From a virus (Duplodnaviria > Heunggongvirae > Uroviricota > Caudoviricetes): DNA of 24,381 nt. Both the position numbers and the translations under genes were made by a program. Every line of letters begins with the position of its first letter. The stretch's first letter is position 1. Location: IMG/VR virus record IMGVR_UViG_2531839666_000027. One strand, 5' to 3'. The notes under the pieces are model-generated. The model saw only the letters and a program-made list of their open reading frames with translations, was not told the DNA's origin and made no database searches. Shown in pieces: positions 6,708-16,446 of this stretch.

Positions 6708-9021
<2,314 letters not shown>

Positions 9022-10543: not shown

Positions 10544-10755
10544 CAGAACCTCGCCAGCCGGTACCCGGGATGCCCCCGTCGTCGTGTAATCAGAGCCGCA
10601 AGGCGGCGCTCCCACTCCTGCCGTCCCTGCCGGATCTCAGATAAGTTTTCCATGGTCATCTGCTGACCATTAAAGGTGACGGATTTTCCGTCCAGCACCG
10701 CCATTTCAGCTTCCGTATAACGCTGAATCATGGCTTCGATATCATTCTGGTTCAT
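10543..10755 (-). CDS. head-tail joining / head completion protein (lambda gpW-like)
   Basis: About 70-aa ORF between terminase and portal; C-terminus ...RRRGHPGYRLARF resembles lambda W; ATG 10755 is preceded by GGAGG and overlaps the terminase stop. Confidence 0.7.
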   Translation of the reverse strand: MNQNDIEAMIQRYTEAEMAVLDGKSVTFNGQQMTMENLSEIRQGRQEWERRLAALITRRRGHPGYRLARF

Positions 10756-12725
10756 AACCATCCTCCGGAAGTCAGCCAGGGGTTAACATCGTCAGTTACT
10801 GTTTTCTTCCGTTTTTGTTTTTTAACAGGCGTGGATACCGGTTCCGGTGAGGATGACGGTTCGGTACTGTCCTGGACACACTCCAGCCAGGTCTCCCGGC
10901 TCGCCCACTCCGGTGCATCCGGCCAGCGGATCTTTTCGTATCCATGCAGAATGACCAGAGCCTCGGCATACACCATCAGGTCAAAAGCTTCGTTGGCACC
11001 GCGACCCGGCTTACTCCATTTCCCGTCACTGCTCCGCTCTTCATACGTCAGTTCGTCGTAAAACCAGCTCCCCAGCCAGTCAGGGAAATGCACATAGCCT
11101 GGACCTGGCGAGTCACGCCATAACGCGTTATTCACCCGGTCTTTCAGGGCATCCGTCTGAAGAAGCCAGAGCGGCACATCACCTGCGGCCTGCGCCCGGC
11201 GGCCCGTTCGTCCGGTGTTATCAGGGAATGTACGGCTGATCAGTTTTGCGCGCCGGATGCTGTCACCCTTAAACAGGTAAATACGTTTACCAAGGCCATC
11301 ACGACGGCAACGACGCCAGAATTTATAGGCATTATCAGTGACCCCGTCTTCACCGCCGGAGTCCACCGCCATTGCCATCAGTCGCATTTGTTGAGAAGGA
11401 TCGGAGGCCAGCGGCCAGCTTTTATGAAAAACATCCGTCAGCAGGACATCCCAGTCTTCCGGATAGCTGGCCGGATCAATTCGCTGGCTCTCCCCGTCGC
11501 AGTCACTGCGCAATGACTGCGTGATGTTGTAACGATCAATAATCCAGCGTTCGCCACGACTGCCATAGCCCGTTACCTGAACCACAAAACGGCGATGACG
11601 TCCCGCCTGCACATCCACTGTCGCCACAAGGAAATTAACGCCATCCGGCACACTGCGGGAAGGAACTGGCTCTGCCCGCTGCTCAAGCAGTTCACTTTTT
11701 CGTTGCTCCATGCTGGCACGAGGAAGATAAGGCAATCCCCAGTCGGTGTTGATAACCGCCCTGAGTGTTTCTTCGCTTCCTGTCGCTTCATACTCCTGTT
11801 CTGCAGTCAGTAATTTGTAAACCAGTTGCGCCCAGGTCTGATACGCAGCAGCTGGCCCTTCCATCCAGAAACTGGCGATACGGGAGCGGCGCGGTTCACC
11901 GGAAACGTTGCCGTTACGATCAATGACCTGACCTTCACGCAACCAGACTCCTGCACTATTGAGCTCACGCTTTTTCTCCGCAGTGATAATGCCGCTGCAG
12001 TGCGGGCAAAGTAGATACGCCGCCTCACTGGCTTTAAAGGGATCCGGTTCATTACGGTAGCCGGTCATGGCATCCATGGCTGGCTGAAAATATTCACCGC
12101 AGTGCGGACATGACCAGTACCAGCGGCGGCGGTCACCACGATTGTAAAGGGAAAGAATACCAGTCGTCGGTGGCGCTTCATGAGGCGACTTACGTCGCCA
12201 TTTGCTGTCGCAGATGTCACGTCCCGGCGAGCTCTCCACCAGAGTCATCCCGGCGGACATAAATGTGGTGGTACGTTTTGAGGCCAGGGAGAAACCATCA
12301 CCCTCGCTGTCGATATTCTCCGGAAAACGGTCGTAATCGGTTAAGGCGACAAACCGGTAATCCGACGACGACATAATGTTGACCGAGGGCCAACCAATTT
12401 TAAGGAACGAGCCATCCCTGAACGTCTTATCATGGACATTATTGTCGTTACGACGTGGACTCATTCTTTTCTTTACCGCCGCACTGCTTCTGAACGTTCT
12501 GTCGAGGCGCTTTTTAGAATGCTCGCGGGCCTTATCTTCGGTCATCTGCACAACGAGCATGTCCGAAGGATCGCAAACGATGGTATAGACAATCCATCCA
12601 TCGATCAGACCAATGGTCTTCCCTGTTCGCGCAGGACCAACAAAAATCACCGCATCGTATTCACGCGATGCCAGGCAGTTCATGGGCTCAATGATGTAGG
12701 GTGTCAGTTCAGGATCCCATGGCAC
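10752..12725 (-). CDS. terminase large subunit (lambda gpA family); the intact frame starts at a GTG, while the probable true N-terminus (ATG 12850 with AGGAGG) is in another frame
   Basis: 657-aa ORF with ...WYWSCPHCGEYF... zinc-ribbon-like motif typical of gpA terminases. The upstream 49-codon frame MGFSSARNLGRDISAGFSPPRRMPISEAVKKF... starts at an RBS abutting the small-terminase stop and would join this frame if the A6 run at 12758-12763 were A7. Confidence 0.85.
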   Translation of the reverse strand: MPWDPELTPYIIEPMNCLASREYDAVIFVGPARTGKTIGLIDGWIVYTIVCDPSDMLVVQMTEDKAREHSKKRLDRTFRSSAAVKKRMSPRRNDNNVHDKTFRDGSFLKIGWPSVNIMSSSDYRFVALTDYDRFPENIDSEGDGFSLASKRTTTFMSAGMTLVESSPGRDICDSKWRRKSPHEAPPTTGILSLYNRGDRRRWYWSCPHCGEYFQPAMDAMTGYRNEPDPFKASEAAYLLCPHCSGIITAEKKRELNSAGVWLREGQVIDRNGNVSGEPRRSRIASFWMEGPAAAYQTWAQLVYKLLTAEQEYEATGSEETLRAVINTDWGLPYLPRASMEQRKSELLEQRAEPVPSRSVPDGVNFLVATVDVQAGRHRRFVVQVTGYGSRGERWIIDRYNITQSLRSDCDGESQRIDPASYPEDWDVLLTDVFHKSWPLASDPSQQMRLMAMAVDSGGEDGVTDNAYKFWRRCRRDGLGKRIYLFKGDSIRRAKLISRTFPDNTGRTGRRAQAAGDVPLWLLQTDALKDRVNNALWRDSPGPGYVHFPDWLGSWFYDELTYEERSSDGKWSKPGRGANEAFDLMVYAEALVILHGYEKIRWPDAPEWASRETWLECVQDSTEPSSSPEPVSTPVKKQKRKKTVTDDVNPWLTSGGWL

Positions 12726-12858
12726 CGAGTTACCAGCCCCTTGGGAACACGCATGAATTTTTTAACAGCCTCCGAAATCGGCATGCGACGTGGTGGGGAA
12801 AATCCTGCCGATATGTCCCTTCCCAAATTTCGGGCTGATGAAAAACCCATTATTCCTC

Positions 12859-13386
12859 CTAGAGACTCTCTCCTTCCTCATCAGGAATTAATTCAGCAGC
12901 ACAAGCCTCGTAGGATTTTTCCTGAAGAGTGTATCGCAGGTCATCAATGGCCTGCTGTACAACGCCGACGGCCTGAGGAGTCAGGGCGCAATCGCGTTCA
13001 AGAACATCCGGAATTGTCTCCAGAACCTGGACGACAGCCTTTCTCATGGACGAATAGACGATGACTACTTCATCAACGGGGATGAGTTTTCGCTGCTCCT
13101 TTTCCAGCTTGATCCTTTCATTTTCAGATTGGTACCAGTCCTTTCTCTCTTTCGGCTCCATACGGGATGGATCATGAACAGAGTCTGCTGCCTCATGCTT
13201 CACACTAAACAGGGCTGGCCCGACATGCTGCAGGGCGTAAACGGGGTTCCCCCTGATAGTCGCAGCCACAGGAGTGTTGGCCGCGAGGAGCCGTTTTTTT
13301 ACTGTGTCCCGGTGAAGCCCAAAGGCCTCAGCGATTTTAAAAACACTCCAGTAATAAGCATCACCGATCCCGCTCACATTTGACAT
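12859..13386 (-). CDS. terminase small subunit (Nu1-like, HTH DNA-binding)
   Basis: ORF 12859..13416; preferred start ATG 13386 (MSNVSGIGDAYYWSV...) has GGAG 8 nt upstream; sits immediately upstream of the large terminase and downstream of the cos-like site. Confidence 0.75.
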   Translation of the reverse strand: MSNVSGIGDAYYWSVFKIAEAFGLHRDTVKKRLLAANTPVAATIRGNPVYALQHVGPALFSVKHEAADSVHDPSRMEPKERKDWYQSENERIKLEKEQRKLIPVDEVVIVYSSMRKAVVQVLETIPDVLERDCALTPQAVGVVQQAIDDLRYTLQEKSYEACAAELIPDEEGESL

Positions 13387-13564
13387 AAGCAACTCCATCT
13401 GGCAGGTGAAAATCATGTTTATTTATATATTTCAATTAATTGCAAACTGGTCTAATGACAGGGAGAAAAAAATATTGTACAGGTGAAAAGAGAAATAACT
13501 TTTAATTATCAATAAATTACCAAACATGCTGCCGCCGCCATGGAAATGCAAAAACTAGCCTTTT

Positions 13565-13590
13565 TCCGCGACGCTCCCGCCCCGTGGCAG
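13565..13590 (-). other. putative cos site (cosN-like cohesive-end region)
   Basis: Minus strand reads ACGGGGCGGGAGCGTCGCGG, closely resembling recalled lambda cosN ACGGGGCGGCGACCTCGCGG, about 190 bp upstream of the small terminase start as in lambda. Confidence 0.45.
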
Positions 13591-13610
13591 GGGCCCCCAC
13601 CGGGAGGACC

Positions 13611-13633
13611 CGACAGCCTGACAGCCTGACAGC
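13611..13633. repeat. short tandem repeat (GACAGCCT)x2.9 beside the cos-like site
   Basis: Directly visible: gacagcctgacagcctgacagcc. Confidence 0.6.
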
Positions 13634-13770
13634 CGTGATGAGCATCTGATACAGCGCTTTACATAATGGCATAGGAATAATTCAGAAGGACATCACAGCA
13701 TGCCCACACAAATTAGTGTGAGTGTCCTGTTTCTTCCTACGCACAGGACTGACGAGCATGAGGGGAAAAT

Positions 13771-13938
13771 ATGCGAACCATAAATGCCTCATCTTCAGCA
13801 ATGCAACCGGCATCCGAACAGGACGATATTGTAAATTCACCTAATTACGAGGACATTGCAGTAGTTGAATTGCAGCTCTGTATTAGCCTGACAGTGACAG
13901 AATGCGATATTGACTCTGTCACAGGTGAAATAGTTTGA
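13771..13938 (+). CDS. hypothetical small acidic protein (55 aa), absent from the ORF track because it is under 60 aa
   Basis: ATG 13771 preceded by GAGGGGAAAAT (good RBS spacing); reads MRTINASSSAMQPASEQDDIVNSPNYEDIAVVELQLCISLTVTECDIDSVTGEIV to TGA 13936-13938. No homology recognised. Confidence 0.25.
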   Translation: MRTINASSSAMQPASEQDDIVNSPNYEDIAVVELQLCISLTVTECDIDSVTGEIV

Positions 13939-15666: not shown

Positions 15667-15871
15667 TCATTTTCACTTTTTTAAATCCAACGACAGACGG
15701 CTGGCATTTAAGTATTGTGAAATATTATCAAATGTAATCATCATTGATTTACAAAAGATACATTTTGCCCCGAAAGGATTCATGTCAGAAACATCAAAAG
15801 ATGATGTTCTATACTGGGAACCATGACAACACGGGCATCTAAAGTGAATATGGTTTGTAATATTGTCTACC

Positions 15872-16084
15872 TCAAAGCGCCACTACATGAACAGCGGCAG
15901 GACCTTTAGGTCCGTTCTCAATACCAAATTCAACTTCCTGATTCTCAGTTAATGTTTTGAAATCGTTGCTCTGAATTGCTGAGAAATGGACAAACACATC
16001 TTTGCTGCCATCTTTCGGCGTGATGAAACCAAAACCTTTTTCAGGGTTAAACCATTTCACTAAACCAGTCATTTTGTTAGACAT
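15872..16084 (-). CDS. cspI: cold-shock protein (CspA family)
   Basis: 70-aa [41 protein letters not shown]... with RNP1/RNP2 motifs. Confidence 0.9.
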
Positions 16085-16446
16085 AATTATTACCTTTTGA
16101 AGAAATTAGCCCTTGGGCAGAATGGTCCGAAAAAAAATATCAGAGAGAAAAACCAACAAGGAAATCTCAAGAGGTACAAATAATAAAATTATAACAATGA
16201 CTGCTTCAGATAAATTTGTAACAAACCAGAACACCATTAACGCATGATTAACCACCCATAGCAAGGATTACTTTTGTAAAGAAAAACACAGCAATGAAAG
16301 AATAGCTTTATTTATTAATAAAACGTGTCATTCTGATTAAGACCTTTTATCTTACCCTTAAGATTTCAGGAATTTTGGCTCATGGAAGAGTCCTTTTTAT
16401 TTAAATTTTACATTCCGCGATGTAAATGTTCCGATTTAATATTACC

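Follow-up and report, generated by a model that had tools for sequence, protein, structure and literature searches.

A lambda-type cos site with a common cohesive-end variant, probably that of a cdtI/Tritos/mEp460-group prophage of Escherichia coli

Does a short GC-rich segment in front of a small terminase gene mark the place where a lambdoid phage cuts its DNA and, if so, is its cohesive end as exceptional as it looks? The question arises for the window, by which we mean the whole stretch of 24,381 nt that was analysed (Caudoviricetes; IMG/VR record IMGVR_UViG_2531839666_000027). An earlier note, made from the letters alone, had proposed a lambda-like cos site with an overhang unusual among lambdoid phages and with octamer repeats beside it. 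Our analysis indicates, with a probability of about 0.9, that the region is the cos of a lambdoid prophage of the E. coli cdtI/Tritos/mEp460 group and that the octamers are a variable flank. All the elements lie on the minus strand, in the order cosQ (13611-13605), cosN (13584-13569), cosB (about 13570-13387), terS and terL, so that the place and orientation expected of a lambda-like cos are borne out. The elements considered first are the following.

13605..13611, minus strand: cosQ heptamer GGGTCCT, the packaging-termination signal, same as the lambda heptamer
13569..13584, minus strand: cosN, CG/GGGCGGGAGCGT/CG, with left half and CG flanks same as in lambda
12859..13386, minus strand: terS, small terminase of 175 aa, type A, DUF1441/phrog_141
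10752..12850, minus strand: terL, gpA-family large terminase with GpA_ATPase and GpA_nuclease domains

The minus strand from 13585 to 13566 reads ACGGGGCGGGAGCGTCGCGG, that is ACG/GGGCGGGAGCGT/CGCGG, and the wider layout is ...GGCTGTCAGGCTGTCAGGCTGTC GGGTCCT CCCGGTGGGGGCCCCTGCCA CG/GGGCGGGAGCGT/CG CGGAAAAAGGCTAGTTTTTG.... The ends of lambda, read from NC_001416, are ...GGGTCCTTTCCGGTGATCCGACAGGTTACG / GGGCGGCGACCT CGCGGG..., which agrees with the lambda sequence given in the earlier note. By comparison with these ends, staggered nicks may be placed at 13583/13582 on the minus strand and at 13571/13570 on the plus strand; they would generate a 12-nt 5′ overhang, GGGCGGGAGCGT, corresponding to 13582..13571 (minus strand). 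As in lambda, the predicted overhang contains 10 G+C in 12, starts with GGGCGG (bp 1–6) and is bordered by CG at both nick positions. It is identical to lambda GGGCGGCGACCT at 8 of the 12 positions and differs at 7, 8, 9 and 11, exactly four mismatches where about four had been announced. The similarity extends beyond the GC-rich core: the cosQ heptamer GGGTCCT at 13611-13605 lies 29 nt upstream of the top-strand nick, as compared with 30 nt before the end of NC_001416 in lambda. On the other side, the ATG of terS (13386) is 196 nt away from the first base of the overhang, close to the 190 bp first estimated, and lambda Nu1 starts at bp 191; the distance from the end is thus about 190–197 bp in both phages. 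The resemblance to lambda also includes a gpA-family large terminase and an IHF-consensus site located between cosN and the distal repeats. The Rfam and terminator/promoter scans had no match at the cos itself. A 51-aa ORF (13517-13672, minus strand) runs across cosQ and cosN and has a counterpart that HannyBb and other records list as a hypothetical protein; it is probably spurious, because the cos would be cut within it. A further ORF (13682-13840, minus strand) is found beside it, also upstream of terS.

The most telling, if indirect, evidence for the position of the ends comes from related phages, which were asked for in the earlier note and are indeed on record with a cos at this place. 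The records of cdtI (AB285204 / NC_009514) and Tritos (OV696610) both begin at the base equivalent to window position 13582 and end with ...CCTGCCACG. Overhang, flanks, cosQ, type-A cosB, terS and terL are identical or nearly so in the window and in these phages, with 98–99% identity over 4.6 kb; Tritos, a prophage of E. coli LF82, is 99% identical over that length. In view of these record starts and of the identity with Tritos, the window belongs to a prophage of this phage group, in which the cos is internal, with the lysis/moron region on one side and the head genes on the other. Two features set the window apart from both cdtI and Tritos, namely a frameshift in terL and an A at 13416. To the left of cosQ, cdtI has unrelated sequence without octamers, whereas Tritos carries the same three copies as the window. 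It should be borne in mind that homology may in turn have decided where the cdtI and Tritos records start, the Tritos paper containing neither cos information nor an account of how the ends were set. The virion-derived assembly mEp460_4F5 (LR595868.1, our loci L137/L138) has been opened 4 nt left of the nick predicted here; its record starts with CCACGGGGCGGGAGCGCGG, and three nucleotides (TCG) are missing from the right edge of the overhang. The pattern resembles an artefact of assembly at physical cohesive ends and would lend indirect support to the termini proposed here.

The limits of the site can be drawn from conservation. In an alignment of 28 cos regions and in 79 type-A loci from IMG/VR (55 unique type-A sequences), cosQ, CTGCCACG, cosN and bp 13–41 are conserved, whereas the sequence left of cosQ and the cosQ–cosN spacer are variable. 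GGGTCCT is present in all relatives aligned, and homology to its left ends abruptly. This sharp start of homology at cosQ implies that the functional site is well delimited. No terminator-like site was detected between the genes upstream and terS, consistent with late read-through. The late region carries, between the lysis genes and the cos, a cold-shock moron: a cspA thermoregulator (15845-16230, minus strand; Rfam score 112.8 bits, E 2.6e-29) precedes an ORF for a 70-aa cold-shock protein (15872-16084).

The terminase genes require closer consideration. The terS ATG at 13386 has a GGAG Shine-Dalgarno sequence 6 nt upstream. The A at 13416, a C in cdtI and Tritos, creates an upstream ATG specific to the window, with which the ORF reaches 185 aa; this ATG is probably spurious, and translation probably starts at the ATG at 13386. 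The sole Pfam match of TerS is DUF1441 (PF07278; E 3.9e-44), and among the PHROGs it matches family 141, 'terminase small subunit', with E 1.8e-64 and, more weakly, phrog_57, the family of lambda Nu1 (E 1.7e-9). Reciprocally, lambda Nu1 gives a weak match to phrog_141 (E 5.6e-8). The two proteins align over the N-terminal helix-turn-helix region, and the Tritos counterpart is annotated as terminase small subunit; a PDB sequence search with TerS gave no match. TerS does not reach the gathering threshold of Phage_Nu1 (PF07471), in contrast to the small terminases of lambda, Gifsy-1 and N15, and this counts to some extent against a site of lambda type. It is likely that TerS is a distant homologue of Nu1 that works alike, rather than a member of the Nu1 family. 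TerL, for its part, matches GpA_ATPase (PF05876; E 2.8e-79) and GpA_nuclease (PF20454; E 1.6e-86).

A further reservation is that terL has lost one nucleotide at about 12741 (12737-12741, minus strand), a run of four G instead of five, which shifts the frame near codon 38, so that the resident prophage may be unable to use its own cos. Five G are found in cdtI, in Tritos, in 78/78 IMG/VR relatives and in 754/755 E. coli genomes, the sole other genome with four being that of E. coli ET791, where they occur in a different and visibly degraded prophage. Two explanations are at hand for the deletion, a mutation that inactivates terL or a sequencing error in the homopolymer. In the former case, the cos would be intact but a relic, cut only when terminase came in trans from another resident phage with a type-A TerS. 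The rarity of the four-G variant, seen once among 755 genomes and there in a decaying prophage, speaks for such a loss, as does the dependence of Nu1 binding on the N-terminus of lambda gpA. Nevertheless, apart from this deletion terS, terL and the head genes are open and about 99% identical to the Tritos record, the loss of a single base in a run of five G is a typical assembly error, and translation from a GTG at 12725 could yield 657 aa that still cover GpA_ATPase positions 6-247. We regard the relic status as possible but the less probable outcome, and retain the reading of the region as the cos of a cdtI/Tritos/mEp460-group prophage.

A second alternative concerns the repeats that abut cosQ.

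13612..13634, minus strand: tandem octamer GGCTGTCA, 2.9 copies (GACAGCCT on the plus strand), found by TRF

TRF reports GACAGCCT with period 8, 2.9 copies and 100% matches, so that the 2.9 copies counted beforehand are really there; their attribution to the cos is another matter. They might be a functional extension of cosQ or a cos-linked array of protein-binding sites, as their immediate contact with cosQ may hint (the final G of the last copy is shared with GGGTCCT), together with the recurrence of the 10-mer AGCCTGACAG at 13885-13894. This is contradicted by the comparison of 79 IMG/VR loci with the same cosN and cosB and with TerS proteins 99–100% identical, 78 of them with the same overhang: the octamer GGYTGWCR is present in 0, 1, 2 and 3 copies in 18, 12, 40 and 9 loci, respectively. 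Moreover, in cdtI, phi458 and several IMG/VR contigs, octamers are absent and unrelated sequence extends up to the first G of cosQ, while the cosQ of lambda has a length of 7 bp, and lambda, Gifsy-1 and mEp213 all lack a repeat of this kind. Since their number varies from none to three among phages with the same cos, the octamers are a dispensable, variable flank outside the cos, and a function as part of the cos is very improbable.

The weakest alternative, that a short stretch rich in G+C looks like the lambda cos by accident, can draw on the shortness and composition of the core (CGGGGCGGNNNNNNCG has one match in the window against 0.06 expected, and 6 of 100 shuffles of the window also yield one), but it is refuted by the genomic context to the point of being negligible, since the cosQ spacing and the distance and orientation of terS and terL all fit, an IHF-like site is in place, two phage records open at the exact base and the 42-nt core is unchanged in 1807 E. 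coli genomes.

We turn now to the overhang, which the earlier note held to be unusual among lambdoid phages. This claim does not survive comparison. Lambda-like phages are defined by 12-nt 5′ cohesive ends related to those of lambda; at bp 7–12 of cosN they often differ, and selection does not act on these differences (Feiss et al. 2015, PMC4669245). [quoted passage not shown] Our extraction method reproduces the published differences of N15 (9, 12) and Gifsy-1 (8, 9, 11). The Gifsy-1 overhang, GGGCGGCAGCGT, is only one base, at position 7, away from GGGCGGGAGCGT. In Gifsy-1, cosQ, the CG flanks and the 30-nt spacing likewise conform to the lambda type; it differs from the window in having a true Nu1-family TerS (PF07471) and a cosB resembling those of lambda and 21. 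A lambda-type cosQ, cosN left half and flanks are likewise common to mEp460, phi458, PhiR40_1, mEp213/LLS and N15, which differ from the window by other cosB/TerS cassettes (type B and others). The mEp460-like phages and phi458 even have the same overhang, with the exception of mEp460 itself, whose bp 12 is a G, while mEp213 and N15 have other right halves, with changes at 9, 10 and at 9, 12, respectively; the overhang of LLS/mEp213 is GGGCGGCGCGCT (PMC12315714).

The frequency of the variant was estimated by scanning IMG/VR with the pattern GGGTCCT-N18-24-CGGGGCGG-N6-CG, which provides a sample and not a census. Among the IMG/VR matches listed, 127 lambda-type cos sites had 24 different right halves, of which that of lambda occurred 65 times and that of GGGCGGGAGCGT 14 times, making it the second commonest. 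In 131 sites, again among the matches listed, the distance from cosQ to the nick was 30 in 76 and 29 in 43. The 42-nt core CTGCCACG-GGGCGGGAGCGT-CGCGGAAAAAGGCTAGTTTTTG is identical in 1807/5426 complete E. coli genomes, at up to seven places per genome. As for the sequenced phages in which the earlier note suggested looking for the same cos, 11 phage records contain the core with 100% identity, the match being cut by the start of the record in Tritos and cdtI. Within the type-A TerS loci the overhang GGGCGGGAGCGT is almost universal (78/79). A literature search for the exact 12-mer GGGCGGGAGCGT and its reverse complement returned nothing relevant. The divergence from lambda at four bases is real but ordinary, the variant being very common and already contained in deposited phage records. 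Accordingly, the site itself, being represented in public phage records, brings little new biology. What is gained is a probable placement of the physical genome ends and of the packaging origin for a very widespread family of E. coli prophages, which includes the CDT-I converting phage as well as Tritos of the AIEC strain LF82; this should help in annotation, in setting the orientation of genomes derived from prophages and in the recognition of satellites that bear a cos.

The residual novelty lies in the architecture of cosB and in the specificity cassettes of the DUF1441 terminases. Counting from the first base of the overhang, the cosB of the window, which we call type A, comprises the following elements.

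13542..13570, minus strand: cosN-proximal spacer CGCGGAAAAAGGCTAGTTTTTGCATTTCC, phage bp 13–41, conserved across all cosB/TerS types
13520..13541, minus strand: type-specific segment ATGGCGGCGGCAGCATGTTTGG, phage bp 42–63, at the position of lambda R3
13507..13519, plus strand: IHF-consensus site TATCAATAAATTA, phage bp 64–76, at the position of lambda I1
13480..13488, minus strand: TTTCACCTG copy 1, phage bp 95–103, candidate type-A TerS recognition element
13403..13411, minus strand: TTTCACCTG copy 2, phage bp 172–180, just upstream of the terS ribosome-binding site

The conservation of bp 13–41 in the 28 aligned cos regions and the 79 type-A loci is compatible with a role of this spacer in setting the distance, and possibly the bending, between cosN and the TerS sites. 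The next segment, bp 42–63, is wholly different between TerS cassettes with shared flanks (28 cos regions), and may thus be a TerS site. The putative IHF site at bp 64–76 is the sole match to WATCAANNNNTTR, the IHF consensus, in the 24-kb window, although one match is no more than expected by chance; the site does not vary among the 55 unique type-A sequences, and an ATTGA core is kept at this position in the other cassettes of the 28 cos regions. The two copies of TTTCACCTG, 77 bp apart, occur at bp 95 and 172 in complete type-A loci and in no type-B or type-C cosB. The window holds three matches to this motif, all near the cos, against 0.28 expected, and none of 100 shuffles had three or more. 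The identity of cosB with itself is best at an offset of 77 bp (43/90), a value reached by 18 of 1000 shuffles.

These observations suggest that the CACCTG-type elements are binding sites of the type-A TerS, with several qualifications. The copy at bp 95 is the most polymorphic spot of cosB in the 79 loci, whereas that at bp 172 is nearly invariant; in the degraded prophage of ET791, copy 1 is absent and a single TTTCACCTG is kept. Both copies are direct: type-A cosB contains neither an inverted, R2-like copy of TTTCACCTG nor one in the R3 position, and a lambda-like R3/inverted-R2/R1 arrangement of TTTTCACCTG was sought there without success, with a script that recovers the arrangement of lambda. 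The polymorphism of the bp-95 copy and the missing inverted repeat both weigh against a site of strictly lambda type, and the details of the R3-I1-R2-R1 model may not hold here. The third TTTCACCTG (13922-13930) was considered as a part of the cos and rejected, as it does not co-vary with the TerS type, being present in one type-B contig and missing from several type-A ones. It is situated 347 bp upstream of cosN, in a segment (13889-13930, minus strand) where it adjoins an 8-bp inverted repeat, GTGACAGA/TCTGTCAC, and the 10-mer AGCCTGACAG, which also forms the octamer array.

By analogy with lambda, packaging could then be envisaged as follows. The DUF1441-type small terminase would bind the type-specific cosB sites, assisted by an IHF-induced bend at bp 64–76, and would place the gpA-type large terminase on cosN. 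TerL would nick the two strands 12 bp apart, on the minus strand where the flanking G meets the first G of GGGCGGGAGCGT and on the other strand just after the T, which would leave the 5′ overhangs GGGCGGGAGCGT. From cosB, packaging would run rightwards, towards terS and terL, and would be ended by the next cosQ and cosN.

Type A is one of several solutions. Past the shared bp 1–41, at least four unrelated versions of cosB were found in the 28 cos regions, each followed by its own DUF1441 TerS.

Type A cosB/TerS: window, cdtI, Tritos, HannyBb
Type B cosB/TerS: mEp460-like phages, phi458
Type C cosB/TerS: loci L096 and L103
Fourth cosB/TerS type: PhiR40_1

The cassettes were compared over window positions 13387-13582 with loci L007–L011, L096 and L103. 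The TerS proteins of types A and B are 42% identical, the N-terminal helix-turn-helix region being diverged and the C-terminal half conserved; terL is about 91% identical in DNA. Type B has TCATCACCAC in direct orientation at bp 47, in the R3 position, and at bp 121, and in inverted orientation at bp 94; these copies surround an ATTGAT site and form a triplet that mirrors the R3-I1-R2-R1 of lambda, itself recovered by the same script. Lambda and 21 provide the precedent, having alternative cosB and TerS recognition domains on a shared cosQ–cosN (PMC4669245). The situation described here is alike in that one cosQ–cosN is combined with alternative cosB/TerS cassettes, at least four cosB types being found on the same 42-nt core; it differs in that the cassettes encode DUF1441 proteins, with putative specificities. 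A cosQ–cosN with swappable cosB/TerS would carry the specificity paradigm of lambda and 21 over to DUF1441 terminases, and might be put to genetic use.

It is tempting to go one step further and to suppose that type-A cosB is built unlike that of lambda, from two units some 77 bp long, in each of which an IHF-like element rich in A/T is followed by a direct TTTTCACCTG, without an inverted R2, and that it is one of at least four interchangeable cosB/TerS cassettes, which share one cosQ–cosN core found in a third of E. coli genomes. Such cassettes could be captured by satellites, as contig L043, described below, may illustrate. We put this forward tentatively, as something that may well turn out otherwise. 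If true, it would represent an uncharacterised packaging-specificity system, and not a new kind of cos.

More distant relatives offer some points of comparison. In a Trabulsiella phage whose TerS is 56% identical, cosB contains, at the corresponding place, a clear tandem duplication of 78 bp (1.9 copies, 83% matches) with CACCTG/CACCTC motifs around IHF-like sites. Scanning genome contigs for diverged type-A TerS gave two loci only, and scanning viral contigs gave only proteins 99–100% identical; phylogenetic footprinting of cosB is therefore shallow. Gifsy-2 (L014, 1490-1560) and Trabulsiella guamensis (L142, 460-530) represent DUF1441-TerS phages with a diverged cos, in which GGTACTC stands at the position of cosQ. 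Gifsy-2 has a different, possibly longer sequence between CCACG and CGCGG, and Trabulsiella has GGGGGACGGGGA.

Several cos sites per contig were seen in L068, L078 and L121, and three of the present variant within 12 kb in L043 (IMGVR_UViG_2574179916_000005), at 67-109, 8202-8244 and 10738-10780. The latter contig carries in succession a type-B terS, a terL cut at 331 aa, an integrase/Bro-N/AAA_25/SSB element with a type-A cosB lacking terS, a gene for a ClpP–capsid fusion, and a type-C cos with its terS; it looks like a cos-bearing satellite or a set of nested elements. Finally, a TerS 100% identical to that of the window is encoded on L141 (JAGZPX010000007.1), labelled as a Veillonella parvula MAG, and most probably comes from an E. 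coli prophage, the contig having been binned wrongly.
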